From positions 2,674,728-2,717,791 of the forward strand of contig ML992502.1 in assembly GCA_010093995.1 (NCBI GenBank): a DNA stretch of 43,064 bases. Reading direction: 5' to 3'. The DNA comes from Elsinoe ampelina (taxonomy: Eukaryota). Below are positions 4,267 through 35,458 of the stretch, one piece after another. A program made the translations under genes and the position numbers. A model generated the notes under the pieces. It worked only from the letters and a program-made list of their open reading frames with translations. It did not search any database and had not been told where the DNA came from. The stretch's first letter is position 1. The number at the start of each line of letters is the position of its first letter.

Positions 4267-5216
4267 CAGTCGTTTTGAGTTCAACCGAGCCACCCCGGGC
4301 TTGGCGGTACTCTTCACCGACTTCTGCTTACTAAAATTAGCTAGCTAGAAGTCTATAGAGAATACTATAGAGAATATTAATAAATTAAAGCTAAAAAAAG
4401 GTATAATAGTCGCTATACTACTCTAATTAGGTTATTACTATTATAATTAATTATTAAATAGCTAAACTAAAGCTAGTAGATATATAGTTCTTACTTACTA
4501 AAAAGTATACTAATTATGCTATTTATACTACTACTAAGGTAGCTAGAGCTATAATCTATTAAATTTAACTATCTCTTAAGTTCTTTAGTACTTCTTATTC
4601 TTCTATTAAAGCTTATATACTATACTTTTATACTTTTACCTCTTTCTTAGAAGATATAAGTCCTTTATAGCTAAGCTCTTTCTATACTAACCTATCTAAG
4701 GAGGTAATAGCCTACCTAAATAATATTTCTACTACTTATCTTAATAAAGTTTAAGCCTTCTTAAGAGAGATATATAATTACTAGATATACTTAAGTATAA
4801 TCTAGTATATAATCTAGCGCTAGTAATAGTCTTAAAAGGTAGCTAAGAAGGTAGTAGCTAAAAGAGATATAATACTTAGAGTAAATTAGACTCGAAGGTA
4901 TATACTTTAGCTAGTTAATAGAATTATTTATATTAATAAGTTAGCTTATAATAAGTATATAGTATAGAGGAGATATAGGTAGACACCTATTAGTAAGAAG
5001 TATATAAATATCTAGCTAAAGTAGCATAGTAAGAGATAGAGCATATTACTAGCTATTACTATTAATAGCTATCTCTTTAGTACCTTAATCTACTATAGAT
5101 TAATTACTAGTAAGATCTTTATTAGCTAGCTAATAGATATAATAATACTAGAGCTTCTAGCTAGTATAATCTTTATTATAGATAATACTTTAATCTACTA
5201 GAGTAATAAGGTAAAG
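4267..5216 (+). mobile_element. Tc1/mariner DNA transposon copy A, left part (TIR and most of the RIP-degenerate transposase)
   Basis: TA at 4265-4266 followed by TIR CAGTCGTTTTGAGTTCAACC, which matches the reverse complement of ~23245-23339. Colinear with 12903-13239 plus 20269-20873. De-RIP reading gives TAYLDEVQ, VDESA and MDNASIH. Confidence 0.88.
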
Positions 5217-6091: not shown

Positions 6092-6358
6092 TTTATAATA
6101 CTATCTAATTGTACTTTATTATCTATAAGATATACCTTCTCTAACTCTTACCTTAGTGCTATACTACTATAGAAGTAGAACTACCTTGTTCTTAGCTTAG
6201 CTTAGACTACTAGTATAGACTATATTTAGACAGTTTATAACACTTTAACTATCCTTACTATAGTATAGCACGCTACGAGGTTAATAAGTAACTCTTACTC
6301 TAAGTTACTATTAGTATCTTTAATTACTAGTAAGCTAGGAAAGCTTACTATTAATAAT

Positions 6359-8341
6359 ATATCTACTACTAGTTTAACCTTAGGTAAACATAGAAGGTCT
6401 TTTAGTATAGGGAAAGGACAGAGTAGACCTAAGTTAGAAGTAGAACTCTTCTATAGGGACTATATCTACTTAAAGCGCTTCCTTGTTTAACTTAAGGCCT
6501 TCTTTACTCTAGAGAGAAATAAGTACGCTAACGATATAGTAAAAGTCCTCTATACTAGAATATACCTTAAAGGGGCTACCTTCGAGTAGTTTAAGCCTTA
6601 TATAAGTAGCTACCTAGATAGATAACTAAGCCTAGATATAAAGGCTATCTTTAAGAGCTTTAGTATCTTCTAGGTAAAGATTAAGTAAGTCTTTAACATA
6701 TCTAATAAGAAACATATTACTATAATAAAGATCTAATAACTATAACAATATAGGTCTATAGCCTAGTACTATTCCTAGTTCTAACAACTTATAATATACC
6801 TAGACTAGAATAATAGTACTAAACATTTAGTATTCTACTAAGGACTAAGTAACTTAGTTAAAGACTAGATAATACCTAAGCTACCTAATAGTCTTTAAGA
6901 ACTAGTAGATACTATAATTGCTATTAATAACTAACTTTACAAACGACATATAGAGTATTATAGAGGATATAAGGCAAACACTAGATATATATATTCCTCT
7001 TAAAACTATAGAGACTCTATAGAACTTAACGCTATACGCGAAGGTTGCCTCTTATAGGTATAAGGCTAAGGCTACGGAGGAAAGTTCCTTAGTAGAAAAG
7101 AGAGAGAGAAGTATAAACGAGATAATCTATATTTTAAATATAAAAGACCTAGACATTAGGCTAGAGACTACTAACAAGGGGCGCTAGCTAATAAATTACA
7201 TATAATAGTTACTAGGCTAGTAGAGAAAAAGACTAATACTACTATAGAAGACCTAACAACCTTTAGCGTAGGTAAGGAAATATAGAAGAAGTCTATAATA
7301 ACTTAAGAGGTAATAGAACTCTCTCCGGATGTTATACTTAATATCTCTATAACTAATAATAAATAATAAAGCTATTACACGACACTATTATAGATAGTAT
7401 ATTATAATAACTCTTATTATATTTACTTATTAGATAAGTAAGGATCTAGTTAGTTTCTATATAAGCTATCTAAGTATAGGCAACTAACGAAATAGCTAGA
7501 CTAGGAGTTTAACCTAGAAGGGCTTTCTATAATTAGTAGTAATATTAACTAACCTTAGAAGGTAGTTAGTAATAACTACTAATATATAATTATTAAAATA
7601 AAGTATTAGGACGTAAGTGCTATATAATAATATAGTAACTTTACCTTTAGCTCTTATAGCAAACTATAAGGAAAGGCATATTATATATTACTCTAGAAAT
7701 GTATAAATCTAAATTGTAAATAGTACTATACTATCTACTTATATAATATACTTAGAGAAGATACTATTAGTCTTAAATATACTATAGACTTCTTAATAAT
7801 TAAAATAGATAGTACTATTCCCTATAGCTAAGTATAAGAGTATACTTAGTGTAGCTTTACTAACTATAACTATACTAGAGGTAGTAGTAATAAAGAGAAA
7901 TATAATAAGAAATACACTAAACAATTATAGTATAATAACATAAATAAGAACTTATCTAACAACGACGATATACTACTACTAAGTAGATAACTTAAAGCAT
8001 ACCTTATAGGGATATAGAGGAATTATATAATAATATACATCTACTACTAGAATAGGATATAATAAGATAAATCTATATAACTTACTTTTGTCTTTAATAC
8101 TAATACCTAGCTATACCTAGAAGGTATAGTTATACTAATATAGGTATATAACACTACTTAGTATAACTAGTAGAGAATTATTAGACTTTATAGTTACTAA
8201 GAGACTTAGGCGCTAGAAGTTTACCTTACTATATTAAACAATAACAAAACACAACTTACCTAATAGATATAGTACTAATAGTAGATACGTGTAGGAAGGG
8301 ATTAGCTACTTATCTAAGGAGCTATAATGACAAAAAACTAG
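6359..8341 (+). pseudogene. gag of Gypsy family 1 (RIP-inactivated), ~660 codons
   Basis: One frame throughout: de-RIP FLVQLKAFF...LKGAAFEWFEP, CCHC knuckle CFKCKRPGHxARDC at ~7130-7170, a long C-terminal extension, and an end at ACA AAA AAC TAG. Confidence 0.75.
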
Positions 8342-11300
8342 CTAGTTGTTGCCTAATAAGGTAAGACAATAACACTAGCTAAAGCCTTAGTATAATAAAG
8401 ATCTATACGTTAAACTACTTTATACTAGAAGTCGAAATATAAGGAAGTAAGGTAAGAGCAATAATAAATTCAGGAGCTAACTATAGCTACGTCTCTATAA
8501 TAGTTACTAATTAGCTTAAACCTTATTAACACTAGAAGGAGTTACCTTACCTACTTACTATAGTAGATAGAACCTCTATAGGGAAGGACGGGAAAGTTAC
8601 TTAGGAACTATAAAATATTATAATTAAAATCGAAACACACATAGAAAAACGATTAATCAATATAGTAGACATATAGTATAATATAGTACTTAGTATAGAC
8701 TAGCTTTAATAATATAATCTAGATATAGACTAGATTAAAGAAACACTTAAATTTCCTAAGTATAATTATAGAACGTAGGAAGTATAATTAGCTCTATAGA
8801 TACTAACTATAAGAATAGTATAGGTACGACTAATAGTTAGAGCTATTACTAGTATAAGTAATTAAGCACTTCCGCTAGAATATAAAGACTTTAAGGACTT
8901 ATTTAAAGAAAGAGAAGGTATTATAGCCTTACTCTAATATAAACTATAGAATTATAAAATACTCTTTAAAGAGAGTAAATCCCTAATATACTATTAAGGT
9001 CTTATACTACTATTAAAATAAGAGAAGAATATCCTTAAAGACTATATTAATAAGTACCTACTTAAAGGATTTATACAACTATTAAAATTACCTATTATAT
9101 ATAGAATGCTTTTTGTACCTAAAAAGAATAGAATATTATAAATATATATTAATTACTAGAAACTTAATATACTTACTAGGAAGAATTACTATTCTCTACT
9201 AAGGATTAACAAACTTTAAGACTAACTACGTAGAGCTAAATAGTTTACTATAATTAATATTAAGGACGTTTATTATTAAGTATAAATAAAGAAGAGTAAG
9301 AAGTAGAAAACGGCTTTTAGGACATAATAGAGTCTATATAAGTACCTCGTTATACTCTTTAGGTTAACTAATACTTCTATAACCTTCTAAGAGTTAATTA
9401 ATAACACTCTATAAGAATACCTTAACAACTTTATCTTAGTATATTTAGACAATATTATTATCTTCTTAAAGATATATAATAAACATATAAGATATATTTA
9501 TAAGGTACTATAGAAACTAAAAGAAAAAGACTTACTAGTAAAGCTCTTTAAGTATAAGTTTTATAAATATAAGATATAATTTCTAAGCTATATTATATCT
9601 ACTAATAGTATTAGACCTAATCCGAAGAAGATTAAGTTAGTAAATAACTAGCTAGAACCTACTATAGTTAAGGAGGTTTAAGCACTACTAGGATTCTTTA
9701 ACTACTACTATAAGTTTATTAAGGGGTTCTCTAAAGTAGCTATGCTAATATTTAACCTTATAAAAAAGAAAACTAGCTTTGTCTTTAATAAGGAATATAG
9801 GTAGGCCTTTAAGGAGCTAAAGCTTAGGCTTATAATAGCACCTATCCTAGCACTTTTCGACCTAGACTAATAAGCACTATTAGAGACAGATACCTTAGAC
9901 TTTATAATAGAAGCATATCTAGCGTAGAAGAATATAGAAGAATAACACTACCTAATTATATACTACTTACGAAAAATGACTAGACCTAAACTTAACTACG
10001 ACATATATAATAAGGAGTTACTTACAATTATAGAAGTATTCTATAAGTAGAGGGTATACCTAGAGGGAATAATCTTACCTATGTAAGTCTATACCGACTA
10101 TAAGAACCTATTATATTAGACAATAACTAAGGTTTTTAATAGATAATAGGTTTAATAGTTAGAAACACTTATAAGCTATAACTTTTAGATTTACTATATT
10201 AAGGGATTAGAGAATAGTAGAGTAGACACTCTTAGCTAATAGCTAGATTAATTAAAGAATATAACAATTATAGAGGCCTCTATACTAAAGTAGCAAGACA
10301 GTGCTTTAGTCTATAAGCACCTAAAGGTAGAGTAGTTATATAGCCTTACCTAGGAGCTTATATAAGAACAGAAATAAGAAGTTATTTAAATATACTATAA
10401 TAACCTAATAGCGGGACATAGTAGGATTAATAAGACTATTAAACTTATTATATAAAACTACCTCTAGAAAGGACTTTAAAACAATATTAAGACATATATT
10501 ACTATATACGATATATGCTATAAGTCTAAGTACTTACGACATAAGCTATATAGCCTATTATAACTCTTACTACTACTAGACAAACTATAGCAATTAGTTA
10601 CGATAGACTTTATAGGACCTCTACTACTATTAGAAGAACCTCTTATAGGTATAAAGTATAATAGTATTCTAGTCCTAGTAGATAGGTTTACGAAGTATTA
10701 CTACTTTATACTATATAAGACAATAGTAACTATAGAGAATATAGTCTTTGTCTTTCTCCGAACAATTATTTTATAGTATAGAGTACTATAAGATCTAATT
10801 ACTAACAGGGATAAACTATTTATATTATAATTTTAGTAGTTATTTATAGACCTATTAGGAGTTAAATATAAGCTATTAATATCTTTCTACTTATAAACGG
10901 ACAAATAAATAGAGTAAGCTAATTAAATACTAGAATAATACTTATAGTATTACCTTAACTACGAATAAGACTTATAGGCATTATTACTTCTACTAGCTAA
11001 ACTTGCTATTAATAATAGGAAGTTAGCAAATAGAGTATTACTATTCTACGCTAATTACGGTATATACCTAGATTTATACTATAATATACTCGGGATTAAG
11101 CCGATATCTAAAGATATAAATATACTAGTAGCTAATATTAAGAAACTATATAACTAGCTATACTATAATATAGTATTTATATTATAAAGAATAGCTAAAT
11201 TTACTAACTAGAAGAGAATTAAGAGACTAATTCTAAAGGAGAGAGAGAAAGTTTACCTCCTTAGTAAGAATATTAAGACTAAGAGACTAAGTAAGAAACT

Positions 11301-11730
11301 AAACTATACTAAGCTAGGACCTTTTAAGATCCTAGAAAAGAAAAACAAAAACATATATAAACTAGAGCTACTAAGGCATATAAGAATCTATTTAGTCTTT
11401 TATATATCTCTACTAAAGAAAGTACTATAGAACGCTATACCTAGACTTATTAAACTAGATAAAGAGACATAGGAGCTATAGTATAAGATTAAAAGAGTTT
11501 TATATTATAAATTTATAAAGAGAAAGCGTTACTATCTTATCTACTAGAAAGGACATTAGTATAGTAAGGCAATATAGAAACTAGAGAAACACCTTACCTT
11601 ATAAATAATTCTAAATTACTAGACTAAAAACCTATCCTAAGTAAACTAACTAGGTAGGCCTAATACTACTAATACTAAATAAAAATAAGAATGCCTAAGG
11701 AAGACTACTTAGCTAATAAAAGTACCTTAA
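8338..11730 (+). pseudogene. pol of Gypsy family 1 (protease, RT, RNase H, integrase, chromodomain), -1 frame relative to gag
   Basis: De-RIP motifs: IDSGA (~8464), FVPKKDG..CIDYRKLN (~9110-9170), YLDDII (~9440), ETDASD (~9885), integrase zinc finger and core, and chromodomain YLIHWKG..ATWEPEEHL (~11530-11595). End coordinate is approximate. Confidence 0.85.
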
Positions 11731-12006
11731 TTATTACTAAATAGGAAACTCTAATTAGAGTTAAGTATAAATAATTACTAATCCTATAGGAGAATAGAAT
11801 CCACTAATAATAGTATTTCCTCTTACTCTAGAACTTAAGTATAGGTTTTCTCTAGAGAAATTACTTTCTCTACCTTATTCTCTAATTTCTATATCTCTTC
11901 GTATAGGTAAAGCTTATTACCTATAGCTCTTTAATAAGCCTCTTTTGCCTTTTTATAAGCTTCTTTAGCTTTCTTTCTAGTAGTCTTAGCTATAACTAAT
12001 TCCTTT

Positions 12007-12744: not shown

Positions 12745-12902
12745 CTAAGTATATATCTCTTACGCTATTAAGGTTATAATTCTTCTTCTTTAGCTTAAAT
12801 TTAACCTAATCTAGTACTTAAATATCTCTTTTAAAGCTTCTCTTTCTCTTTATCTACTTAAAGAATTTAGTTAAAACTTTATAAGAGTTAGCCTTAGAGG
12901 TA
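12745..12902 (+). mobile_element. Tc1 copy A, middle fragment
   Basis: Matches 21509-21666 of copy B and ends in the TA that copy B inserted into. Confidence 0.88.
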
Positions 12903-13239
12903 TAGTTGTTTTAAGTTTAACTAAGCTACCCTAGGCTTAGCGTGTTATACTCTATATCGACCTCTCGTTATTAAATTTAGCTATCTAGAAGTCTATAGAG
13001 AATACTAATAAATTAAAGCTAAAAAAAGATATAATAGTTGCTATACTACTCTAATTAGGTTGTTACTATTATAGTTAATTATTAGATAGCTAAATTAAAA
13101 CTAGTAGACGTATAGTTCTTACTCGCTAAAGAGTATACTAATTATGCTATTTATGCTACTACTAAGGTAGCTAGAGCTATAATCCGCTAAATTTAACTAT
13201 CCCTTAAGTTCTTTAGTACTTCTTATTCTCCTATTAAAG

Positions 13240-13702
13240 TGTCACGAACTGTCTAAACATAGCCTACGCTAGTAGTCTAAGCTAAGCTAAGAACGAGGTA
13301 GTTCTACTTCTATAGTAGTATAGCACTAAGGTAAGAGTTAGAGAAGGTATGTCTTATAGATAATAAAGTACAATCGGATAGTATTACAAGGGCTAGCCTT
13401 AGCAATACTAGTGTTCGCTATCTAGACGAGGTTAACTATAGTACTTATATAAGGTAAGGACTACTTCTATATATATGTGTTCTTTACTATATACTCTATA
13501 TACTCTATATACTCCGTAGCGAGAGTCGGGGGCAACATAAAGTATATATCTACTAGTAACCTACGTGCTCTATAGTTCCCGGGGTAGAGCTACTAGAGAA
13601 GATAGAGAACTAGGTAAATGTCGGGCTAGGTTACGTAATAACCTTAGTAGTTTAATTAGTCCTAACGTCTCTATACTTTAGCTATTCTACTAGTTCGTAA
13701 CA
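13240..13702 (-). repeat. 3' LTR of Gypsy 1b
   Basis: TGTCACGAAC...GTTCGTAACA termini; adjacent TTACTCTCCTCCCTT is the PPT on the minus strand. Confidence 0.93.
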
Positions 13703-13776
13703 TTACTCTCCTCCCTTAATTAAGTTATTCTAATAAGTAAGTATTCTTCCTTATCCTTATGCGCTATATACTAAAT

Positions 13777-14325
13777 ATGCCTCTTAGTTGTCGAAGGTAT
13801 AGTAAATCTAGTATATCCGTATAAAAGAACCTCTTGGAGTTTATTAAATTATTTAGAACTAATATGCTATAAGCTTGCTCTCGTTATAAGTTAAAAGGGC
13901 TAGACTATAAAGTCTATATTTAGTTAGGTATTTATAGCTAGTATGTCGCAAGTAACTACTCGGGTTATAATATTTAAGTAACAAAATTGAAATAGTAGCG
14001 TCTCTAGTCTAAGTATATTCGTTTACGAAAGGAATTAGTTATAGCTAAGACTACTAGAAAGAAAGCTAAAGAAGCTTATAAAAAGGCAAAAGAGGCTTAT
14101 TAAAGAGCTATAGGTAATAAGCTTTACCTATGCGAAGAGATATAAAAGTTAAAGGACAAGGTAGAGAAAGTAATCTCTCTAGAGGAGACTCGTATTTAAG
14201 TCCTAGAGTAGAAAGAAATACTATTATCGGTGGATTCTATCCTACTATAGGACTAGTAATTATTTATACCTAACTCCGACTAGGGTTCTCTATTTAGCAA
14301 CGATTAAGGTGCTTCTATTAGCTAA
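13777..14325 (+). pseudogene. Antisense accessory ORF of Gypsy family 1 (six-Cys putative Zn-binding motif plus coiled coil), copy b
   Basis: Intact ATG and a single frame. De-RIP reading: FIESFGTDMPxACSRCxxKGLDCKVHVRSGxCGxCVASxHSGCDIQVTKLEWQRL, then heptad-rich RLRKELA..KKAEEA..ELRLREEMQKLEDK. Stop position is approximate. Confidence 0.65.
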
Positions 14326-17300
14326 GTAATCTTCCTTAGGCATTCTCGTTTTTGTTTAGTGTTAGGAGTGCTAGGTCTATCTAGTTAGTTCGCTTAGGAT
14401 AGGTTCTCGATCTAGTAATCTAGAATTACTTACGAGGTAAAGTGTTCTTCTAGTTCCTATATTGCCTTACTATACTAATGTCCTTTCTAGTGGATAAGAT
14501 AGTAACGTTTTCCCCTTATAGATTTATAACGTAAAATCCTTTTAATCTTATACTATAGCTCCTATGTTTCTTTATCTAGTTCGATAGGTCCGGGTATAGC
14601 GTTCTATAGTACCTTCTCTAGTAGTAATATATAAAAGACTAGATAGATCCTTATATGTCTTAGTAGTTCTAGTTTATATACGTTCTTGTTTTTCTTTTCT
14701 AGGATCTTAAAGGGTCCTAGTTTAGTATAGTTAAGTTTCTTACTTAGTTGTTTCGTTTTAATATTTCTACTAAGGAGGTAAACTTTCTCTCCCTTCTATA
14801 GAATTAGTTCTACAATTCTCTTCTAGTTAGCAAAATCTGCTATTCTTTATGATATAAATGCTATATCGTAGTATAGCTAGTTATATAGTTTCTTAATGTT
14901 AGCTACTAGTATGTTAGCGTCCTTAGATATTAGCTTAATTCTGAGTGTGTTATAGTATAGATCTAGGTATATTCTATAGTTTACGTAGAATAGTGAAATT
15001 CTATTTGCTAACTTTCTGTTATTAACGGCAAGCTCTATAAGCGGTAATAGCGTCGCCTATAAGTCTTACTTATAGTTTAAGTAGCATCGTAGGTACTACT
15101 CTAGTACTTAATTTACCTATTTAGTTTATCTATTCGTTTATAGATAAAAGGAGGTTAATAGCTTATATTTAACTCCTAGTAGGTCTATAAATAATTACTA
15201 GAATTATAACGTAAATAGCTTATCTCTATTAGTTATTAGGTCTCGTAGTACTCTATGTTATAAAATAATTATTTAGAGGAAGGCAAAGGCTATATCCTTA
15301 GTAGTTACTATTGTCTTATATAGTATAAAGTAGTAATACTTCGTAAACCTATCTACTAGAACTAGGATACTATTATACTTTATACCTATAAGAGGTTCTT
15401 CTAATAGTAGTAAAAGTTCTATAAAGTCTATTATAACTAATTACTATAGTTTATCTAGTGGTAGCAAGAGTTATAATAGGCTATATAGCTTATGTTATAA
15501 GTGCTTAGACTTGTAGCATATATTACATATAGTAATATATGTCTTAATATTATTTCGGAGTCCTTTCTATAGGTAGTTTTGTATAATAAGTTTAATAGTC
15601 TTATCGATTCTGCTATGTCCCGCTGTTAGGTTATTATAGTATATTTAAATAACTTCTTTCTTCTATTCTTACGTAAGCTCCTAGGTAAGGCTATATAACT
15701 ACTCTACCTTTAGGTACTTATAGACTAGAGCGCTATCTTACTACTTTAGTATAGAGGCCTCTATTATTGTTATATTCTTTAAGTAATCCAGTTGTTAGCT
15801 AAGAGCGTCTACTCTACTATTCTCTAATTCCTTAATATAGTAGAACTAAAAGTTGTAGCTTATAAGTATTTCTAACTATCGCACTTGTTGTCTATTAAGA
15901 ATCTTAGTTGTTGTCTAATATAATAGGTTCTTATAGTTGGTGTAAACTTATATAGGTAAGGTTGTTTCTTCTAGGTATACTCTCTATTTGCGAAATGCCT
16001 CTATAATTGTAAGTAACTCCTTGTCGTATATATCGTAGTTAAGTTTAGGTCTAGTTATTTTTCGTAAGTAGTATACGATTAGGCAGCGTTATTCTTCTAT
16101 GTCCTTCTACGCTAGATACGCTTCTATTACAAAGTCTAAGGCATCTGTTTCTAGTAGTACTTATTAGTCTAGGTTAAAGAGTGCTAGGACAGGTACTATT
16201 ATAAGTCTAAGCTTTAGCTTCTTAAAGGCCTACCTATATTTCTTATCGAAGACAAATCTAGTTTCTTTCTTTATAAGGTTAGATATTAGCGTAGCTACCT
16301 TAGAGAATCCTTTAATAAACTTATAGTAGTAGTTAAAGAACTCTAGTAGCGCTTAAACCTCCTTAACTATTGTAGGTTCCGGCTAGTTATTTACTAACTC
16401 GATCTTCTTTAAATTAGGTCTAATGCTATTAGTAGATATAACATAGTCTAGAAATTGTATCTTATACTTATAGAACTTATACTTAAAGAGTTTTACTAGT
16501 AGGTCTTTCTCTTTTAGTTTCTATAGTACTTTATAAACATGTCCTATATGTTTATTATATATCTTTAAGAAGATAATAATATTGTCTAAATATGCTAAGA
16601 TAAAGTTATTAAGGTATTCTTATAAAGTATTATTAATTAACTCTTAGAAGGTTATAGGAGTATTAGTTAACCTAAAGGGCATAATAAGGTACTTATATAG
16701 ACTCTATCGCGTCCTAAAAGCTGTCTTCTACTCCTTACTCTCCTTTATTTATACTTAATAATAGGCGTCCCTAATATTAATTACAGTAAACTATTTAGCT
16801 CTAAGTAGTTAGTCTTAAAGTTTGTTAATTCTTAGTAGAGAATAGTAATTCTTCCTAGTAAGTGTATTAAGTTTCTAGTAATTAATGTATATTTATAATA
16901 TTCTATCCTTTTTAGGTATAAAAAGCACTCTATATATAATAGATAATTTTAATAGTCGTATAAATCCTTTAAGTAAGTACTTGTCGATATAGTTCTTAAG
17001 GATATTCTCCTCTTATTTCGATAGTAGTATAAGACCTTAATAGTATATTAGGGATTTACCCTCTTTAAAGAGTATTTCGTAATTCTATAGTTTATATTAG
17101 AGTAAGGCTATAATACCTTCTCTTTCTTTAAATAAGTCCTTAAAGTCTTTATATTCCGGCGGAAGTACTTAGTTACTTACGCTAGTAATAGCTCTAACTA
17201 TTAGTTATACCTATACTGTCCTTATAGTTAGTATCCGTAGAGCTAATTATACTTCCTACGTTCTATAATTATACTTAGGAAATTCAAGTGTTTCTTTAAT

Positions 17301-19800
17301 CTAGTCTATATCTAGATTGTGTTATTAAAGCTAGTCTATACTAAGTACTATATTATACTATATGTCTACTATATCGATTAATCGTTTTTCTATATGTGTT
17401 TCGATTTTAATTATAACATTTTATAGTTCCTAAGTAACTTTCCCGTCCTTTCCTATAGAGGTTCTATCTACTATAGTAAGTAGGTAAAGTAACTCCTTCT
17501 AGTGTTAATAAGGTTTAAGCTAATTAGTAACTATTATAGAGACGTAGCTATAGTTAGCTCCCGAATTTATTATTGCTCTTACCTTACTTCCTTATATTTC
17601 GACTTCTAGTATAAAGTAGTTTAACATATAGATCTTTATTATACTAAGGCTTTAGCTAGTGTTATTGTCTTGCCTTATTAGGCAACAACTAGCTAGTTTT
17701 TTGTCATTGTAGCTCCTTAGATAAGTAGCTAATCCCTTCCTACACGTATCTACTATTAGTACTATATCTATTAGGTAAGTTATGTCTTGTCGCTACTTAA
17801 TATAGTAAGGTAAACTTCTAGCGCCTAAGTCCCTTAGTAACTATAAAGTCTAATAATTCCTTACTAGTTATACTAAGTAGTGTTACACACCTATATTAGT
17901 ATACCTATTCCTTCCGGGTGTAGCTAGGTATTAGCATTAAAGACAAAAACAAGTTACGTAGATTTATCTTGTTATGTCCTATTCTAGTAGTAGGTGTATA
18001 TTATTATATAATTCCTCTATATCCCTATAAGGTATACTTTAAGTCGTTCGCCTAGTAGTAGTATATCGTTGTCGTTATTGTTGTTATTAGATAAGTTCTT
18101 ATCTATATTATTATATTATAGTTATTCGGTGTATTCTTCGTTATATTTCTCTTCGTCGCTACTGCCCCTAGTATAGTTATAGTTAGTAAGGCTACACTAA
18201 GTATATTCTCTTACTTAGCTATAGGGGATAGTACTACCTATTTTAATTACTAAGAAGTCCGTAGTGTATTTAAGACTAATAGCGTCTTCTCTAAGTACGT
18301 CGTGTAAGTAGATAGTATAGTACTATTTGTAATCTAGATTTGTATATTTCTAGAGCGATATATAATATGCCTTTCCTTATAGTACGCTATAAGGGCTAAA
18401 GGTAAGGCTACTATATTGTTATATAGCACTTACGTCCTAATACTTCGTCTTAATAATTATATATTAGTAATTGTCGCTAACTACCTTCTAAGGTTAGTTA
18501 CTATTACTACTAATTATAGAGAGCTCTTCTAGGTTAGGTTCCTAGTCTAGCTATTTTGTTAGTTACCTACGCTTAGATAGCTTATATAGGAACTAACTAG
18601 ATCCTTACTTGTCTAATAAGTAAATATAACAAGAGTTATTATAACATACTATCTATAATAGCGTTGCGTGTTAGCTTTATTATTTACTATCGGTTATAGA
18701 GATATTAAGTATAACATCCGGAGAGAATTCTACTACCTCTCGAGTTATTATAGACTCCTTCTATATTTCCTTACCTATACTAAAGGTCGTTAGGTCTTCT
18801 ATAGTAGTGTTAGCCTTTTTTTCTACTAGCCTAGCAACTATTATATGTAATTTATCGGCTAGCGCCTCTTACTAGTAGTCTCTAGCCCGATACTTAGGTC
18901 TTTTACACTTAAAATATAGATTGTCTTATTTATACTTCTCTCTCTCTTTTCTACTAAGGAACTTTCCTCTACAGCCGTAGCCTTATACCTATAAGGGGTA
19001 GCCTTCGCGTATAGTATTAAGTTCTATAGAGTCTCTATAGTTTCGGGAGGAACGTATATATCTAGTGTTTGCCTTATATCCTCCGTAACGTTCTATATAT
19101 CGTTTATAAAGTTAGTTATTAATAGCAATTATAGTATCTACTAGTTCTTAGAGGCTATTAGGTAGCTTAGGTATTATTTAGTCTTTGACTAAGTCGCTTA
19201 GTCCTTAGTAGAATACTAAATATTTAGCACTATTATTCTAGTCTAGGTGCATTATAAGTTATTAAAACTAGGAATAGTACTAGGCTATAGACCTACGTTA
19301 TTGTAGTTGTCGGATCTTCGTCGTAGCAACGCGCTCCTTATTAGATACGTTAAAGACTTGTTTAATCTTTGCCTAAAAGATATTAAAGCTCTTAAAGATA
19401 GCCTTTGTATCTAGGCTTAGTTATCCGTCTAGGTAGCTACTTATATAAGGCTCGAACTACCTAAAGGTAGCGCCTTTAAGGTGTATCCCGGCATAGAGGA
19501 CCTTTGCTACGTTATTAGCGTACTTGTCTCTCTCTAGAGCGAAGAAGGCTTTAAGTTAAATAAGGAAGTACCTTAAGTAAGCGTAGTCCCCGTAGAAGAG
19601 TTCTACTTCTAACTTAGGCCTACTCTATCCTTCTATACTAAAAGACCTTCTATGTTCGCCCGAGGTTAAACTAGTAGTAGACATGTTGTTAATAGTAAGC
19701 TTTCCTAGCTTACTAGCGATTAAAGATACTAATAGTAACTTAGAGCAAGAGTTACTTATTAACCTCGTAGCGTGCTATACTATAGTAAGGGTAGTTAAAA

Positions 19801-20263
19801 TATTATAAACTGTCTAAACATAGCTTACGCTAGTAGTCTAAGCTAAGCTAAGAACGAGGTAGTTCTACTTCTATAGTAGTATAGTACTAAGGTAAGAGTT
19901 AGAGAAGATATATCTTATAGATAATAAAGTACAATCGAATAGTATTATAAGGGCTAGCCTTAGTAATACTAGTATTTACTATCTAGACAAGGTTAACTAT
20001 AGTACTTATATAAGGTAAGGACTACTCCTATATACATGTGTTCTTTACTACATACTCTATGTGCTTTATATACTCTATAGCGAGAGTTAGGAGCAATATA
20101 AAGTATACGTCCGCTAGTAACCTATATACTCTATAGTCCCTAGGGTAGAGCCGCTAGAGAAGACAAAGAACCGGGTAAACGTCGAGCTAGGTCACGTAAT
20201 AACCTTAGTAGTTTAATTAGTCCTAACGTCTCTACGCTTTAGCTATCCTACTAGTTTATAATA
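19801..20263 (-). repeat. 5' LTR of Gypsy 1b
   Basis: Direct repeat of 13240-13702, differing mainly by RIP-type transitions. Confidence 0.93.
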
Positions 20264-21137: not shown

Positions 21138-23057
21138 TTAAATAAGTTTAATACTAAGACCTAGTAAAAACTCTTTACTACTACTATAACTACTCTATAC
21201 TATATATATACTACTTCGAGTTAGATAAACTAAGTCTAGTTTAGTAGCCGAACTAGATTAATATTTATCTTAGCCGCTAAGCTAGTTAAATCGTCTATTG
21301 CGCTATATAAATTAATATTTATATTAGCTACTATAAACTAGGTAAAAGTGCCTATTTCGACTACTAAGATAGTAAGGTATCTAACTTACTTAATTCGATC
21401 TAGCTCGTATAACTATCTTAGAGTAATACTAGCGCTTAAAAGAGCTAATTTAGCTTTAAATCCGGTATAGAAGGCCTTTATTAAAGGCCTAGGTATTCCT
21501 CTACCTATCTAAGTATATACCTCTTACACTGTCGAGATTATAATTCTCCTTCTTTAGCTTAAATTTAACCTAATCTAGTACCTAAATATCCCTTTTAAAG
21601 CTTCTCTTTCTCTTTATCTACTTAAAGAATTTAGTTAAAACTTTATAAGGGTTAGTCTTAGAGGTAATAGGTAAGGATCTTAAGTCGTTTATAGGCCCTA
21701 AGCGCTACTATAGCTAGTAAGGAGTAATCGAGTTTGTAATATTAATATAGTTAATAGGTGTTAGAGAGAGTACAAAAGGCACTAAAGACGCTAAAGGCGT
21801 TAGTGTTAGTAGTGTTAGTAGAGCGCTTTTAATACTCCTCGAGGCCTTTAAGTAATTAAGGCTTAATATAAGGCCTATAGAAGAACGATTAATAGTAGCT
21901 TTACTATCGCGAATAGTAGTAGTCTAGGTATACTTATCCTCTATTATAATCTAGTAGTACTTACTATTTAACGTACGCTAGTATAACCTCTTATAGTTAT
22001 AGTAATTACAATTAGTGTAAGTCTATACTAACTCTAATAGAGGCTCCTTATTGCTATTTACGCCCTCGAGCGTACTATATAATTAGCTCGTTACTAAGCC
22101 TCGACCTTATAATAGTAGCGCTAGCTACACTACCTATAAAGATAGTAGTATTACACTAGCTACTAGAGTCTATACTGTCCTTACTAGCGTCGATCTAAGG
22201 GAGAATTACTATAAAAGCAGCAGTAGTAGACCTATTAAAGAGTTTAGAACTAGCATAGTTAAAGGTAGTTATATAACTCTTAAATTTACTATAGAGTTTA
22301 TAGCTGTTAGTATCTTCTTTATCTCGGTAGTAAGGCTAAGCCTAAGCTACTAGTAATCCTTAGTAAGCTAATCTTCGAGCTTATTAACTAGCCTCTATAT
22401 CTTAGCTAGCTCTAATATCGCTACTCTAAATAGCTACTATATACTAAGACGCTTATAGGTAGTAGCGTAATTAAGTAAAAGTAGCTTAAGTATAGCTTAA
22501 GTAATAAGACTACTCTTCTCTACTGCCTAATTAGCTAGTACTAACTACGATAGATTACTCGGCTAGCTAAATATATGCTTATTATAGTATAGAGTCTTAC
22601 TTCCGAGCTTTACTACTAGCCTTACCTCTACTATCTAACTAAGATAGAGCATATCTAAGTCGCTAGAATCGGTCTCTAGTAACTCCGGCACTTACGACAA
22701 CTATAGTACCTCTATTACCTATATATCTAGCTCTTTCTCCGGTGCTATATTCGACTTAATCGACTGCCTTAGCTAGTCTAGTATAGGTGTTAGAAACCTT
22801 AATTAAAGAGACAGCTACTAAGATCCAGCTTATAAAGGTAGTATAACTTAGTTTATAGCTTGCTCTATAAGCCTCTAAAGAGCTAAGTTAGCAAATACAA
22901 CCTCTAGATAAGGTGCTACCTACGCTAGCGCTAGTATATAGCTCTTTAGCTAGATAGTTAGACTATAACAAAGGTTATCTAGTACCTTCTCTAACGAGCT
23001 TAAGGAGTGCCTTAAAGAAGAAGAGACTAGCAGTAACAACGGAGGAGTAGAGGATAT
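21138..23057 (-). pseudogene. Putative cargo ORF of the Tc1 element (~640 codons), convergent with the transposase
   Basis: One minus-strand frame gives protein-like de-RIP sequence: Ser/Pro-rich N-terminus, a coiled-coil stretch, a Cys/Trp segment, and the helical block DPYEVLxEFFEWMKRKR...ENYDLDSVR...EGLLHRIRSQISSFK. Boundaries are inferred. Confidence 0.5.
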
Positions 23058-23339: not shown

Positions 23340-24447
23340 TAATAGATAAGAATCTTAAGTCGTTTATAGGCTCTAAGTACTACTATAGCTAGTAAGGAGT
23401 AATTAAGTTTATAATATTAATATAGTTAATAGGTATTAGAGAAAGTATAAAAGGCGCTAAAGACACTAAAGGTATTAATATTAGTAGTATTAGTAGAGCA
23501 CTTTTAACACTTCTTAAGGCCTTTAAGTAATTAAGGCTTAATATAAGGCCTATAGAAGAACAATTAATAGTAGCTTTACTATTATAAATAGTAGTAGCCT
23601 AGATATACTTATTCTCCGTTATAATCTAGTAGTACTTACTAGTTAATATACGCTAGTATAATCTCTTATAGTTATAGTAATTATAATTAGTATAAGTCTA
23701 TACTAACTCTAATAGAGACTTCTTATTGCTATTTATACTCTCGAGTATACTATATAATTAGCTTATTACCGAGCCTTAATCTTATAATAGTAGTACTAGC
23801 TATATTACTTATAAAGATAGTAGTATTATACTAGCTACTAGAGTCTATACTATCCTTACTAGCGTCGATCTAAGGGAGAATTACTATAAAGGTAGTAGTA
23901 GTAGACCTATTAAAGAGCTTAGAACTAGTATAGTTAAAGGTAGTTATATAACTCTTAAATTTACTATAGAGTTTATAGCTATTAGTACCTTCTTTATCTT
24001 AGTAGTAAGGCTAAGCCTAAGCTACTAGTAATCCTTAGTAAGCTAATCTTTAAGCTTATTAACTAGCCTCTATATCTTAGCTAGCTTTAATATTACTACT
24101 CTAAATAGCTACTATATACTAAGACGCTTATAGGTAGTAGTATAATTAAGTAAAAGAGGCTTAAGTATAGCTTAAGTAATAAAACTACTCTTCTCTACTA
24201 CCTAATTAGCTAGTACTAACTATAATAGATTACTTAGCTAGCTAAATATATACTTATTATAGTATAGAGTCTTACTTCTAAGCTTTACTACTAGTTTTAC
24301 CTCTACTATTTAACTAATATAAGGTATATCTAAGTTACTAGAATTAGTCTCTAGTAACTCTAGTACTTATAATAACTATAGTATCTCTATTACTTATATA
24401 TCTAGCTCTTCCTCTAGTACTATATCTAACTTAATTAACTACTTTAG
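23340..24447 (+). mobile_element. Tc1 copy A, third fragment
   Basis: Colinear with 21665-22772 of copy B and broken at 24447 by the Gypsy family 2 LTR. Confidence 0.9.
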
Positions 24448-28443: not shown

Positions 28444-31400
28444 TATTACGAACTAGTAGGACAGCTAGAGCGTAGAGACGTTAGGACTAATTAAACTACT
28501 AAGGTTATTACATAACCTAACTCGACATTTACCTAGTTCTCTATCTTCTCTAGTAGCTCTACTCTAGAAACTATAGAGCGTATAGGTTACTAGCGGACAA
28601 GTACTCTATATTACTCCCGACTCTTACTATAGAGTATATAGAGCATATAGAGTACGTAGCAAAGAATATATATATATAGGAATAGTCCTTACCTTATATA
28701 AGTACTATAGTTAACCTTGTCTAGATAGTAAACACTAGTATTACTAAGGCTAGCCTTTATAATACTATCTAATTATACTTTATTATCTATAAGATATACC
28801 TTCTTTAACTCTTACCTTAGTGCTATACTACTATAGAAGTAGAACTACCTCGTTCTTAGCTTAGCTTAGACTACTAGTGTAAACTATATTTAGACGGTTT
28901 ATAACACTTTAACTACCCTTACTATAGTATAGTACGCTATAAGGTTAATAAGTAACTCTTACTCTAAGTTACTATTAGTATCTTTAATTGCTAGTAAGCT
29001 AGGAAAGCTTACTATTAATAATATATCTACTACTAGTTTAACCTTAGGTAAACATAGAAGGTCTCTTAGTATAGGGGAAGGATAAAGCAGGCCTAAGTTA
29101 GAAGTAGAACTCTTCTATAGGGACTACGCCTACTTAAGGTACTTCCTTATTTAACTTAAGACCTTCTTTACTCTAGAGAGAGATAAGTATACTAATAACG
29201 TAGTAAAGGTCCTCTATACTAGGATATACCTTAAAGGCGCTACCTTCGAGTAGTTTAAGCCTTATATAAGTAGCTACCTAGATAGATAACTAAGCCTAGA
29301 TATAAAGGCTATCTTTAAGAGCTTTAGTATCTTCTAGGTAAAGATTAAGTAAGTCTTTAATATATCTAATAAAGAACGCATTACTATAATAAAGATCTAA
29401 TAACTATAATAACGTAGGTCTATAGCCTAGTACTATTCCTAGTTCTAACAACTTGTAATATACCTAGACTAGGATAATAGTACTAAACATTTAGTATTCT
29501 ACTAAGGACTAAGTAACTCGGTTAAAGACTAGATAATACCTAAGCTACCTAATAGCCTTTAAGAACTAGTAGATACTATAATTACTATTAATAACTAACT
29601 TTATAAACGACATATAGAGCGTTATAGAGAATATAAGGTAAACACTAGATATATATATTTCTCCCGAAACTATAGAGACTCTATAGAACTTAACGCTATA
29701 TACGAAGGTTGCCCCTTATAGGTATAAGGCTAAGGCTACAGAGGAAAGTTCCTTAGTAGAAAAGAGAAAGAGAAGTATAGATAAGACAATCTATGTTTTA
29801 AATATAAAAGACCTAGATATTTGGCTAGGGACTATTAATAAGAGATACTAGCTAATAGATTATATATAATAGTTACCGGGCTAGTAGAGAAAAAGGCTAA
29901 TACTACTATAGAAGACCTAATAACCTTTAGCGTAGATAAGGAAATATAGAAGGAGTCTATAATAACTTAAAAGGTAATAGAACTCTCTCTAGATATTACG
30001 CTTAATATCTCTATAACTAATAGCAAATAACAAAGCTAATACGCAACGCTATTATAGATAGTATATTATAATAACTCTTATTATATTTACTTATTAGACA
30101 AGTAAGAATCTAGTTAGTTTCTATATAAGCTACTTAAGCGTAGGTAACTAATAAAATAGCTAGACTAGAAGTTTAACCTAGAAGAGCTTTCTATAATTAG
30201 TAGTAATATTAACTAACCTTAGAAGGTAGTTAGCGACAACTACTAATATATAATTATTAAAACGAAGTATTAGGACGTAAGTACTATATAATAATATAGT
30301 AACTTTACCTTTAGCTCTTATAGCGAACTATAAGGAAAAGCGTATTATATGTCGCTTTAGAAATATACAAATCTAGATTATAAATAGTACTATACTATCT
30401 ACTTATATAATATACTTAGAGAAGACACTATTAGTCTTAAATATACTATAGACTTCTTAGTAATTAAAATAGATAGTACTATCTTCTATAGCTAAGTACA
30501 AGAGTGTACTTAGTATAGCCTTACTAACTATAACTATACTAGAGGTAGTAGCGATAAAGAGAAATATAATAAGAAATACACTAAATAACTATAGTATAAC
30601 AATATAGATAAGAACTTATTTAACAACAATAATATACTACTACTAAGTAGACAACTTAAAGTATACCTTATAAAGATATAGAGGAATTATATAATAATAT
30701 ATACCTACTACTAGAATAGGACATAATAAGACAAATCTATATAACTTGCTTTTATCTTTAATACTAATACCTAGCTATACCTAGAAGGAATAGTTATACT
30801 AATATAGGTATACGACACTACTTAGTATAACTAGTAAAGAATTATTAGACTTTATAGTTACTAAGGGACTTAGGCGCTAGAAGTTTACCTTACTATATTA
30901 AATAATAACAAAACATAACTTACCTAATAGATATAGTACTAATAGTAGATACGTATAGGAAGGGATTAGCTACTTATCTAAGGAGCTATAATAATAAAAA
31001 ACTAGCTAGTTATTGCCTAATAAGGCAAGATAATAACACTAGCTAAAGCCTTAATATAATAAAGATCTATATGTTAAATTACTTTATACTAGAAGTCTAG
31101 ATATAAAGAAATAAGGTAAGAGTAATAATAGATTTAGAAGCTAACTATAGCTACGTCTCTATAATAGTTACTAATTAGCTTAAACCTTATTAATACTAGA
31201 AGAAGTTACCTTACCTACTTACTATAGTAGATAGAACCTTTATAGGAAAAGATAGGAAAGTTACTTAGGAACTATAAGACGTTATAATTAAAATTAAAAC
31301 ACATATAGAAAAACAATTAATCGATATAGTAGATATATAGTATAATATAGTACTTAGTATAGACTAGCTTTAATAACACAATCTAGACGTAGACTAGATT

Positions 31401-34400
31401 AAAGAAATACTTGAATTTCCTAAGTATAATTATAGAACGTAGGAAGTATAATTAGCTCCGCGGATACTAACTATAAGGATAGTATAGGTATAACTAATAG
31501 TTAGAGCTATTACTAGCGTAAGTAATTAAGTACTTCTACTAGAATATAAAGACTTTAAGGACTTATTTAAAGAAAGGAAAAGTATTATAGCCTTACTCTA
31601 ATATAAACTATAGAATTATAAAATACTCTTTAAAGAGAGTAAATCCCTAATACACTATTAAGGTCTTATACTACTATTAAAATAAGAGAAGAACGTCCTT
31701 AAGAACTACATCGATAAGTACCTACTTAAAGAATTTATATAACTATTAAAATTACCTATTATATACAAAGTACTTTTTATACCTAAAAAGAATAAGATAT
31801 TATAAATATACATTAATTACTAGAAACTTAATACACTTACTAGGAAGAATTACTATTTCCTACTAAGGATTAATAAACTTTAAGACTAACTACTTAGAGC
31901 TAAATAGTTTACTATAATTAACATTAGGGATGCCTATTATTAAGTATAAATAAAGAAGAGCAAGAAGTAAAAAACAGCTTTTAGAACGTAATAGAGTTTA
32001 TATAAGTACCTCGTTATGCTCTTTAAATTAACTAACGCCTCTATAACCTTCTAAGAGTTAATTAATAATACTCTACGAGAATACCTTAATAACTTTATCT
32101 TAGCATATTTAGACAATATTATTATCTTCTTAAAGATGTATAATAAATATATAAGACATATTTATAAGGTGCTATAGAAACTAAAAGAAAAAGACTTACT
32201 AGTAAAGCTCTCTAAGTATAAGTTTTATAAATATAAGATATAATTTCTAAGCTATATTATATCTACTAATAGTATTAGACCTAATCCGAAAAAGATTAAG
32301 TTAGTAAATAACTAGCTAGAACCTACTATAGTTAAGGAGGTTTAAGTACTACTAGGATTCTTTAACTACTACTATAAGTTTATTAAGGAGTTTTCTAAGG
32401 TAGCTATACTAATATTTAACCTTATAAAAAAGAAAACTAGCTTTATCTTTAATAAGGAATATAAGTAGGCCTTTAAGAAGCTAAAGCTTAGACTTATAAT
32501 AGTACCTATCCTAGCACTTTTCGACCTAGACTAATAAGCACTATTAGAGACAGATACCTTAGACTTTATAATAGAAGCATATCTAGCGTAGAAGAATATA
32601 GAAGAATAACACTACCTAATTATATACTACTTACGAAAAATGACTAGACCTAAACTTAACTATAATATATATAATAAGGAGTTACTTGTAATTATAGAAG
32701 TATTCCGTAAGTAGAGAGTATACCTAGAGGGAATAACCTTACCTATATAAGTCTATACCGACTATAAGAACCTATTATATTAAACAATAACTAAGGTTCT
32801 TAATAGATAATAGGTTTAATAGTTAGAAACACTTATAAGCTACAACTTTTAGATCTACTATATTAAGGAATTAAAGAATAGTAGAGTAAACGCTCTTAGC
32901 TAATAGCTAAATTACTTAAAGAATATAACAATTATAAAGGCCTCTATACTAAAGTAGCAAGATAGCGCTTTAGTCTATAAGCACTTCAAGGTAGAGTAGT
33001 TATATAGCCTTACCTAGGAGCTTATATAAGAATAGAAATAAAAAGTTATTTAAATATACTATAATAACCTAATAGCGGGACATAGTAGAATTAATAAGAC
33101 TATTAAACTTATTATATAAAACTACCTCTAGAAAGAACTCCGGAACAATATTAAGACGTATATTACTATATATAATATATGCTATAAGTCTAAGCACTTA
33201 CGACATAAGCTATATAGCCTATTATAACTCTTGCTACTACTAGACAAACTATAGCAATTAGTTACGATAGACTTTATAGGACCTCTACTACTATTAGAAG
33301 AACCTCTTATAGGTATAAAGTATAATAGTATTCTAGTCCTAGTAGATAGGTTTATAAAGTATTACTACTTTATACTATATAAGACAATAGTAACTATAGA
33401 GGATATAGCCTTTACCTTTCTCTAAATAATTATTTTATAGTATAGAGTACTACAAGATCTAATTACTAATAGGGATAAACTATTTATATTACAATTTTAG
33501 TAGTTATTTATAGACCTATTAGGAGTTAAATATAAGCTATTAATATCTTTCTACCTATAAACGGACAGACAAATAGAGTAAGCTAATTAAATACTAGAAT
33601 AATACTTATAGTATTACCTTAACTATAAATAAGACTTATAAGTATTATTACTTCTACTAGCTAAACTTGCTATTAACAATAGAAAGTTAGTAAATAGAGT
33701 ATTACTATTCTATACTAATTATAGTATATACCTAGATTTACACTATAATACACTCGGGATTAAGCTAATATCTAAAGATATAAATATACTAGTAGCTAAC
33801 ATTAAGAAACTATATAACTAGCTATACTACAATATAGTATTTATATTACAAAGAATAGCTAAATTTACTAACTAGAAGAGAATTAAGGGACTAATTCTAA
33901 GAGAGAGAGAGAAAGTTTACCTCCTTAGTAAAAATATTAAGACTAAGAGACTAAGTAAGAAACTAGACTATACTAAGCTAGAACCTTTTAAGATCCTAGA
34001 AAAGAAAAATAAAAACGTATATAAACTAGAGCTACTAAGGCATATAAGGATCTATCTAGTCTTTTATATATCTCTACTAGAGAAAGTACTATAGAACGCT
34101 ATACCCGGACCTATTAAACTAGATAAAGAGATATAGGAGCTAAGGTATAAGATTAAAAGGGTTTTATATTATAAATTTATAAAGGGAAAGTGTTACTATC
34201 TTATCTACTAGAAAGGACATTAGTATAGTAAGGTAATATAGGAACTAGAGAAATACTTTACCTTGTAAGTAATCCTAGAATACTAGACTAAAAACCTATC
34301 CTAAGTAAACTAACTAGGTAGGTCTAACGCTACTAACACTAAACAAAAACGAGAATGCCTAAGGAAAACTACTTAGCTAATAGAAGTATCCTAATTGTTA

Positions 34401-35458
34401 CTAAATAGAGAACCCTAATTAGAGTCGAGTATAAATAATTACTAATCCTATAGGAGAATAGGATTTACTAATAATAGTATTTCCTCTTACTCTAGAACTT
34501 AAATATAGATTTCCTCTAGAGAAATTACTTTCTCTACTTTATTCTCTAATTTCTATATCTCTTCGCATAGGCGAAGCTTATTACCTATAGCTCTTTAATA
34601 AGCCTCTTTTGCCTTTTTATAAGCTTCTTTAGCTTTCTTTCTAGTAGCCTTAGCTATAACTAATTCCTTTCGTAAATAAATATACTTAGACTAGAGATAC
34701 TACTATTCTAATTTTGTTACTTAAATATTATAACTCGAGTAGTTACTTATAATATACTAGCTATAAATACCTAACTAAATATAGACTTTATAGTCTAGCT
34801 CTTTTAACTTATAATAAGAATAAGCTTATAGCATATTAGTTCTAAATAACTTAATAAACTCTAAGAGATTCTTTTGTATAGATATGCTAGATTTACTATA
34901 TCTTTAATAACTAGAAGGCATATTTAGTATATAGTATATAAGGATAAGAAAGAATACTTACTTGTTAGAATAACTTAATTAAAGGAGAAAAGTAATGTTA
35001 TAAACTAGTAGAATAGCTAGAGCGTAGAGATATTAGGACTAATTAAACTACTAAGGTTATTACGTAACTTAACTCGATATTTACCTAGTTCTCTATCTTC
35101 CCTAGTAGCTCTACCTCGGAAACTATAGAGTATATAGGTTACTAGCGGACAAGTACTCTATATTACTTTTAACTCTTGCTACGAAGTACATAGAGTATAT
35201 AAAGTACATAGCAAAGAATATATATATATAGGAATAGTCCTTACCTTATATAAGTACTATAGTTAACCTTGTCTAGATAGCGAACACTAGTATTACTAAG
35301 GCTAGCCTTTATAATACTATCTAATTGTACTTTATTATCTATAAGATATACCTTCTCTAACTCTTACCTTAGTGCTATACTACTATAGAAGTAAAACTAC
35401 CTCGTTCTTAGCTTAGCTTAGACTACTAGCGTAGACTATATTTAGACAGTTCGTAACA
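28444..35458 (+). mobile_element. Gypsy family 1, copy c, full length (7015 bp), inserted in the protease region of Gypsy family 2
   Basis: 463-bp LTRs at 28444-28906 and 34996-35458, TSD AGTAT at 28439-28443 and 35459-35463, PPT AAAGGAGAAAAGTAA before 34996. Confidence 0.96.
34373..34921 (-). pseudogene. Antisense accessory ORF of Gypsy family 1, copy c
   Basis: Homologous to 13777-14325, with the same 549-bp length and ATG retained at 34921. Confidence 0.6.

Follow-up and report, generated by a model that had tools for sequence, protein, structure and literature searches.

An antisense third gene of fungal chromoviruses encodes a zinc-cluster-like protein with one residue that covaries with an LTR motif

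Introduction

Retroelements that code for regulators of their own LTR include foamy virus, with Tas, and HTLV-1, with Tax and the antisense protein HBZ, the latter made antisense from the 3' LTR. Third ORFs are also known from Neurospora Tad and Cladosporium CfT-1. The closest described systems are antisense extra genes of LTR retrotransposons situated between pol and the 3' LTR, a class long known but lacking an assigned function; the consulted part of one review covers them for plants, gives Boty of Botrytis as the fungal example, states that the function is unknown, reports that a nuclear role is suspected for the plant genes (aORF-3R) and mentions the HTLV antisense promoter (PMC7264820). 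Boty-like (BcGypsy1) Ty3/Gypsy elements of Botrytis cinerea and Sclerotinia carry such an antisense gene, brtn, according to a title cited in PMC8365987. For zinc-cluster factors, the consulted part of a further paper describes activation through dense arrays of half-sites (PMC10250231).

We set aside one further candidate, an antisense leucine-zipper ORF in Verticillium elements: PMC3441728 contains no occurrence of antisense, ORF3 or third ORF, and PMC3145793 nothing relevant. The words antisense, zinc and ORF3 do not occur in PMC3248453, and the searchable literature, outside which lie subscription journals, Repbase and GyDB notes and supplements, yielded no paper that pairs a zinc-cluster ORF with motifs of an LTR. 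Antisense genes in this position are already known, and the match between a protein residue and an LTR motif is what the present analysis adds.

Results

Three RIP-degraded Gypsy copies in one window

The window, by which we mean the whole stretch of 43,064 nucleotides analyzed here from the 28-Mb assembly of Elsinoe ampelina, opens with about 4 kb that hold genes and continues as AT-rich repeats of RIP type (TpA/ApT of about 2). Within the first part lie a host frame of 414 codons (1414-2658, + strand) with no Pfam match at E 0.001 and an intact host gene (2728-4191, - strand) that encodes a queuosine salvage protein (PF10343) and adjoins the repeat block. The same Gypsy element occurs three times in the window, as copies a, b and c. 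These copies and the parts of copy b outside the antisense frame are as follows.

6092-12006: copy a, interrupted by an assembly gap
13240..20263, - strand: Gypsy/chromovirus copy b, 7024 bp, RIP-degraded, 5-bp target-site duplication TAAAG
28444..35458, + strand: copy c of the same element, 7015 bp, target-site duplication AGTAT
14320..18200, - strand: pol frame (RT, RNase H, integrase), its end meeting the ORF3 stop tail-to-tail
13240..13702, - strand: 3' LTR of copy b, 463 bp, its U3 end facing the ORF3 start
13703..13715, - strand: polypurine tract between the 3' LTR and the ORF3 start, identified by reading the sequence
13468..13475, - strand: site that corresponds to the TATA box in intact relatives, the putative sense promoter
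13492..13572, no strand assigned: RIP-worn A-type motif copies in U3, at 13492, 13501 and 13566, with a fourth at 13683; clearer in locus L031
13632..13637, no strand assigned: remnant of a CACGTG box, TACGTA in copy b and CACGTG in L031

Copies b and c each have LTRs of 463 bp and a 5-bp target-site duplication. Read with X at stops, the frames of copy b match the Pfam families Retrotrans_gag, RVT_1, RT_RNaseH, Integrase_H2C2 and SH3_Tf2-1. The closest intact relative with DNA context, locus L036, is 49% identical to the window element in pol and 52% in gag, and a protease and a chromodomain are present in all four intact relatives whose pol was scanned, L036 included. From the domains of copy b together with the protease and chromodomain of L036, the window element is therefore a chromovirus; the domain order is that of the group (gag, then PR-RT-RH-IN-chromodomain), and the LTR pair, polypurine tract and 5-bp duplication are all present.

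Other repeats share the window. A second, different RIP-degraded Gypsy pol lies at 24450-28430 (- strand), with copy c inserted into or beside it, and a RIP-degraded Copia element (RVT_2, E 4e-11) lies at 37800-41000 (- strand); CpG is nearly missing at 38-43 kb. Between copies b and c there is a 1.1-kb direct duplication of 89% identity (21665-22772 and 23340-24447), with short matches at 4265-4383 and 12745-13004, and its two arms are probably the LTRs of a different element.

A dead antisense frame between pol and the 3' LTR

The initial annotation described a third gene, here called ORF3, on the strand opposite to gag-pol. Its features are the following.

13777..14325, + strand: ORF3 of copy b, 182 codons; dead, with 17 internal stops
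34373..34921, - strand: ORF3 of copy c, 17 internal stops
11709..12005, - strand: 3' part of ORF3 in copy a, cut by the assembly gap
13876..13968, + strand: six-Cys cluster region, codons 34-64; one TGC and five TAT in copy b
13954..13956, + strand: codon 60, Asn (AAC), four positions after the fifth Cys (Cys5+4); the Gly/Asn position that covaries with LTR motif type
13981..14226, + strand: long helix or coiled-coil region, approximate limits, mapped from the L036 model
14227..14322, + strand: acidic tail rich in Trp, Phe and Leu, approximate limits

The place and strand given for ORF3 are correct: it runs from ATG to TAA on the + strand in copy b, where gag-pol lies on the - strand, and from 34921 to 34373 in copy c, and the tail said to be visible in copy a is found there at 12005-11709 on the - strand. 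The inner edge of the LTR, at 13702, stands 74 bases before the ATG, against a claimed 75. The span of 549 bp and the ATG are borne out, whereas an open frame is not, given the 17 stops in copy b. Several cysteines had been restored from TAT, and indeed a single one of the six positions reads Cys in copy b and five read TAT.

We compared 31 copies of ORF3 in this genome, namely copy c and 30 of 40 listed copies, copy b included. They contain no indels, 29 retain the ATG, and each has 14-19 stops, all of them TAA or TAG. A Cys codon is kept at position 34 in four copies, at 37 in five and at 56 in six, and positions 44, 53 and 64 read TAY in all 31; L031, a less mutated copy (GC 44%, 5 stops), has Cys at 37, 56 and 64. 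Among pattern matches in this genome, position 53 is TAY in 93 cases and TGY in none. Because Cys 44 and Cys 53 never read Cys in the copies of this genome, both rest on intact relatives. RIP turns CpA and TpG into TpA (PMC3017866, in the part consulted). Since it can account for any TAA, TAG or TAT, the dead copies alone are no proof of a gene, and we dropped the lack of TGA stops as an argument for one, since RIP makes TAA from TGA. A copy of ORF3 read with X at stops matched no Pfam family. Every copy examined in this genome has been killed by RIP.

Intact relatives of ORF3

Such damage invites the reading that ORF3 is an artefact of decoding RIP-damaged DNA, in which any TAT can be taken as Cys and any TAA or TAG as sense, or else a captured fragment of a host gene; the two cysteines never present in this genome fit an artefact. 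We therefore turn to relatives outside the dead copies. A HMMER profile built from 25 dead copies, run against 1.84 billion proteins, found 18 at E <= 0.001 (best E 7.7e-21); a word-based search with the alignment of the 25 copies gave no match. Later searches returned 26 and 194 matches, of which the few with names are hypothetical proteins of Hortaea, Aureobasidium, Elsinoe, Sporormia, Bathelium and Friedmanniomyces. All six cysteines are invariant in 13 of 13 intact matches. The spacing C-x2-C-x6-C-x8-C-x2-C-x4-9-C occurs in 151 of the 168 distinct relatives fetched, with a last spacing of 6 in 126 and of 7 in 23, counts that are silent on more distant forms because the search motifs select this subfamily. 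The six-Cys reading reached by de-RIP is thus what relatives display, as C-x2-C-x6-C-x8-C-x2-C-x6/7-C. The L031 and L036 proteins are 40% identical over 196 columns, the tail covered.

Among 30 intact ORFs, changes fall mostly at third positions. The five closest pairs give dN/dS values of 0.03-0.13, and over all pairs with an estimable dS the range is 0.03-0.20. Eight of nine pairs aligned as DNA have indels that are multiples of three or none at all. The check for codon-level conservation proposed with the initial annotation thus returns purifying selection, and unmutated relatives keep every Cys.

The arrangement is shared as well. The 3' end of pol converges on the ORF3 stop in 50 of 61 metagenome loci, so that the antisense place between pol and the 3' LTR, first read from the dead copies, recurs tail-to-tail with pol in intact homologues; nine of the other loci are too short and the remaining two represent one deleted LTR element. 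ORF3 lies inside an LTR element in 52 of 52 informative loci. Stops interrupt all three pol-sense frames over ORF3 in each of the 10 cases checked, and ORF3 is therefore no extension of pol. The best 120 of the 194 matches include no long fused form of the protein, and no relatives came from viral contigs (0 of 12 candidate stretches) or from prokaryote genomes (0 of 3); ESM Atlas features pointed to unnamed Ascomycota clusters only.

The invariant cysteines, dN/dS values far below 1, the LTR-element setting and the lack of a fused form all stand against an artefact or a host-gene fragment, a reading to which we give very little credence and which the relatives have already refuted. ORF3 is almost certainly a real gene, and it is a widespread accessory gene that is dead in this genome.

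A separate observation concerns L038:4673-7086 (the same in L039), a 2.4-kb internally deleted element with two 330-bp LTRs, an intact ORF3, a gag fragment and no pol. It may be a non-autonomous derivative that retains the regulator.

RNA on the ORF3 strand

A related element, L059, is present in 23 RNA runs. In all three runs examined, contigs skip the 62 bases directly after its ORF3 stop, a piece that reads GTATGT...GCTGAC...TTTAG on the ORF3 strand and, as a 62-nt GT-AG piece, is a typical fungal intron. Because these intron signals are on the ORF3 strand, the RNA is made on that strand; this antisense RNA overlaps the end of pol. In a fourth run, of unspecified kind, the joint did not appear. 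All of this evidence consists of contigs for one relative from three leaf-litter studies of 2019, possibly a single campaign. The 62-base piece is missing in the sister loci L056 and L058 and present in L057, L059 and L083, and in a second element a 57-base GT-AG gap separates L050 from L053 at the same place. A pattern scan found intron signals just past the ORF3 stop in 8 of 30 cases, against 1 of 27, 2 of 25 and 0 of 30 in controls, which is a weak result because the scan missed the proven L059 intron.

Depth on the RNA contigs (in X5, the 767-1929 contig at 77 and its neighbors at 9-12) was dropped from consideration, contigs being unable to rank levels. Inside the integrase, a comparison of L059:1837-1891 with L058 reveals a 55-base gap that is CT..AC on the ORF3 strand and GT-AG on the gag-pol strand, and which reads as sense-strand splicing in that relative.

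A zinc-cluster-like protein with a predicted coil

The likeness to Zn2Cys6 domains noted in the initial annotation is upheld in the cysteine spacing (the 151 of 168 relatives above) but not in the Pfam Zn_clus match or the basic recognition residues. In the HMMER check against Zn_clus (PF00172), 5 of 18 relatives scored 10.5-12.9 bits, below the curated cut-off of 21 bits, and 14 of 57 relatives reached E <= 1, with a best E of 0.0053. The residue four positions after the second Cys (Cys2+4), which we take to be the position of Gal4 Lys18, a basic recognition residue, is Asn in 72, Gly in 36, Lys in 16, Ser in 14 and Arg in 6 of 151 relatives, and a PROSITE-like zinc-cluster pattern matches 10 of the 151. 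Being below the Pfam cut-off and without the basic residues of Gal4, the protein is therefore zinc-cluster-like and no canonical Zn2Cys6 member. The six cysteines presumably bind zinc.

AlphaFold2 applied to 57 sequences gave a model with pLDDT 85.9 (models 85-86) in which a helix at the N terminus is followed by two short ones across the Cys region, a helix of 100 residues and a loose tail. The top Foldseek rows are chains of Hap1, Pho7, Put3, Ppr1 and CBF3, none at E <= 0.001; Hap1 (1pyc) superposes at an rmsd of 1.7 Å over 35 columns with E 0.92. VIA-align gave Z 2.2, rmsd 2.6 and 41 aligned positions for Gal4 and nothing at Z >= 5, a lack of strong matches that does not imply a new fold. 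A profile search of PDB sequences brought up coiled-coil noise only, with Lac9 at E 8.2. The long K/E/A/L heptad region previously noted after the cluster corresponds to the 100-residue helix predicted in the model, and the acidic Trp tail recurs as an acidic aromatic tail in 22 of 22 relatives, all of which have a basic N terminus (+6 to +12) and an acidic tail (-6 to -15).

Modeled as a homodimer, residues 1-170 of L036 score 0.37 where the best control reaches 0.00, with contact agreement of at least 72% and pLDDT of at least 75. Of 30 solved pairs, 21 attain the dimer mark, and of 23 single chains none does; for eukaryotes the figures are 17 of 29 pairs (only 1 of 7 without an older solved relative) and 0 of 30 single chains. 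The modeled coil is antiparallel, with the heads at opposite ends, and the model lends support to a putative dimer of the ORF3 protein.

One residue covaries with the motif of the U3 array

Gly and Asn both occur often at the ends of helices, and adenine is a base that Asn commonly reads. Beyond the polypurine tract, the U3 of relatives keeps a constant order in element sense: often CACGTG, which we take to be a host site of bHLH type, then a motif array and then, some 20-40 bases on, TATATA. The array, directly upstream of the TATA box, mostly holds 5-9 motif copies at 7-10 base spacing, with orientation changing within it, and up to 11 copies occur against fewer than one in shuffles. Two motif types are found, CTGAGCA (T-type) and CAGAGCA (A-type). 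The residue at Cys5+4, presumably the second-half counterpart of the Cys2+4 contact residue of Gal4, follows them: Gly goes with the T-type in 11 of 11 and Asn with the A-type in 14 of 14 of the 25 non-redundant loci, which remained from 34 candidates after 5 uninformative and 4 redundant ones were set aside. Among the uninformative loci are L033, which has Asn and a different repeat in place of either motif, and L084, which also has Asn and gave 0 strict matches. Across the family, Cys5+4 is Gly in 84, Asn in 65, Asp in 1 and Ser in 1 of 151.

Cys5+4 is the sole perfect column of 174. A blind scan of 109,886 residue-by-k-mer pairs found 10 perfect ones, 8 of them at Cys5+4 and the other 2 at a clade marker with 2 changes, and the best integrase column reached 0.81. 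On a tree built without the Cys4-Cys6 segment there are four changes of motif type. Placing all T-type loci in one clade is rejected (AU 1e-9), and likewise by the N-terminal 49 columns alone (AU 0.010) and by the part after Cys6 (AU 1e-12). The type label carries phylogenetic signal (4 changes against a shuffled mean of 8.4), four changes are few, and the N-terminal test reaches only p = 0.01. We first noticed the rule by eye in these same loci, wrote it down and then tested it; held-out support is thin, coming from L031, L078 and near relatives of loci already seen. The LTR of L031, unseen before the rule was made, is A-type. The window family has Asn, and its 33 LTR copies, which make one data point, average 4.3 A-type against 0.09 T-type remnants; its Asn and A-type arrays match the prediction of the rule. 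As common helix-end residues, Gly and Asn could arise as two states without DNA contact.

In L033, the U3 upstream of position 3034 has neither motif and shows by eye a different repeat, GTTCCT-purine-G, and the protein has a changed N-terminal helix that lacks the usual Arg pair. This locus is possibly a third specificity class.

The covariation lends indirect support to the transcription-factor-like protein that was originally suggested, its DNA binding being a prediction from sequence; the antisense promoter suggested in the 3' LTR is a putative one, and for the anti-silencing role suggested alongside it, we found no specific evidence.

Linkage of ORF3, U3 and integrase

An alternative account of the match is that the U3 motifs are sites for host factors and the residue merely hitchhikes with them, the ORF3 protein serving in another role such as anti-silencing, chromatin tethering or assembly of the integration complex. 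Several observations suit it. The ORF3 and integrase trees of 23 elements conflict, with 4 of 20 splits shared and a Mantel value of 0.24; each alignment rejects the topology of the other, and strict co-descent of the two was ruled out. Lying side by side, ORF3 and U3 recombine as one block, as in L044 and L048, whose U3 differ and whose ORF3 are only 42% identical. CACGTG, too, is of the bHLH host-site type. Simple hitchhiking would, however, have the N-terminal stretch between U3 and the residue group by motif type, and its 49 columns do not (AU 0.010); on each flank, a nested Asn group stands nearer to Gly-type proteins (0.60 versus 0.52 and 0.54 versus 0.35); the step from Gly to Asn at Cys5+4 needs two base changes; and the blind scan found no other homoplastic residue that matches the motif perfectly. 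Because neither flank groups by type, hitchhiking is weakened, still standing as an account that we think unlikely.

The same two loci form an LTR mosaic: L044:571-758 and L048:1-188 share 188 bases at 96% on the side of the TATA box away from the motif array, the identity ending at that box.

Discussion

We propose that the ORF3 protein would hold zinc with its six cysteines and that the long coiled coil would join two such proteins as a dimer. The dimer would dock on the 5-9 motif copies between the CACGTG box and the TATA box in the U3 of its own element, where the Cys5+4 residue would help to set the base that is read, Gly with CTGAGCA and Asn with CAGAGCA. The acidic aromatic tail would then draw in the transcription machinery, and the element would thereby turn on its own LTR. 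Judging from sequence comparison, the protein quite likely binds its own U3 motif. If it does, there is a good case that it acts as an activator rather than a repressor. Taken as a whole, an element-encoded, LTR-binding regulator, with activation the likelier sign, is an interpretation that we hold to be reasonably probable.

The covariation data would also fit a protein that binds the U3 array and represses or insulates it, through copy control or competition with host factors, or one that bridges LTRs or the arms of an array through its antiparallel coil. The predicted antiparallel dimer with heads at opposite ends, the switch of motif orientation within the array and the antisense RNA overlapping the end of pol would all be in keeping with that proposal, whereas the acidic aromatic tail and an array just upstream of the TATA box suit an activator better; we consider repression or bridging rather unlikely. 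The L038/L039 element, with LTRs and ORF3 and no pol, is compatible with either an activator or a repressor.

Because ORF3 and U3 are neighbors on the genomic RNA, they could move between pol backbones as a cassette of regulator plus sites. Returning to an activator, we lean slightly toward a joint reading in which these widespread fungal LTR elements code for a sequence-specific transcription factor of their own, a divergent zinc cluster, a non-CGG motif is read by the second half of the cluster, the Gly-T/Asn-A code has switched several times and factor plus U3 form an exchangeable cassette; that same reading, held with the same slight preference, would make these elements "complex" retrotransposons with private, mutually insulated activation circuits.

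For the ORF3 family there is now a candidate target and a sharp prediction, that two protein types prefer motifs one base apart, and the residue-to-motif match does more than describe the gene, since it points to a target and to an assay that can decide the matter. If the proposal is true, fungal retrotransposons govern their own transcription like complex retroviruses, solo LTRs of these families act as promoters that a mobile factor switches, and a second mode of reading DNA is added to the zinc-cluster fold. Annotations routinely list ORF3 as a "hypothetical" or "Zn(2)-C6" protein of the host, and counts of fungal transcription factors may therefore be inflated; two relatives are automatically named "Zn(2)-C6 fungal-type" in UniRef.

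Among known systems, brtn, as described in citing papers, resembles ORF3 as a transcribed antisense gene between pol and the 3' LTR; no Botrytis or Sclerotinia names occur among the few named ORF3 matches. The plant aORF-3R genes (Grande gene23, RIRE2, Retand, PvRetro13) share position, orientation, conservation and antisense transcription with ORF3, and differ in that, according to the review, they have neither a clear likeness to known proteins nor a reported target sequence; the word zinc is absent from its text (PMC7264820). Tas, Tax and HBZ offer a working analogy alone, with different hosts and domain types and with a relation in sequence or fold neither found nor expected. With the Zn(II)2Cys6 factors (Gal4, Hap1, Put3, Ppr1, Pho7; PF00172), ORF3 proteins have in common the six-Cys spacing, an acidic tail and, as predicted in the models, two short helices and a downstream coil. 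They differ from these factors in scoring under the Pfam cut-off, in having Lys at Cys2+4 in only 16 of 151, in a conserved loop, VH(V/I/L)RSG, that is free of Pro in its six central positions, and in an extra N-terminal helix within a total of about 190 aa. The Gal4 coil is parallel, whereas the dimer model of ORF3 is antiparallel. Finally, the candidate site of the ORF3 protein is CTGAGCA or CAGAGCA rather than CGG, and the residue that covaries with it follows Cys5 rather than Cys2.
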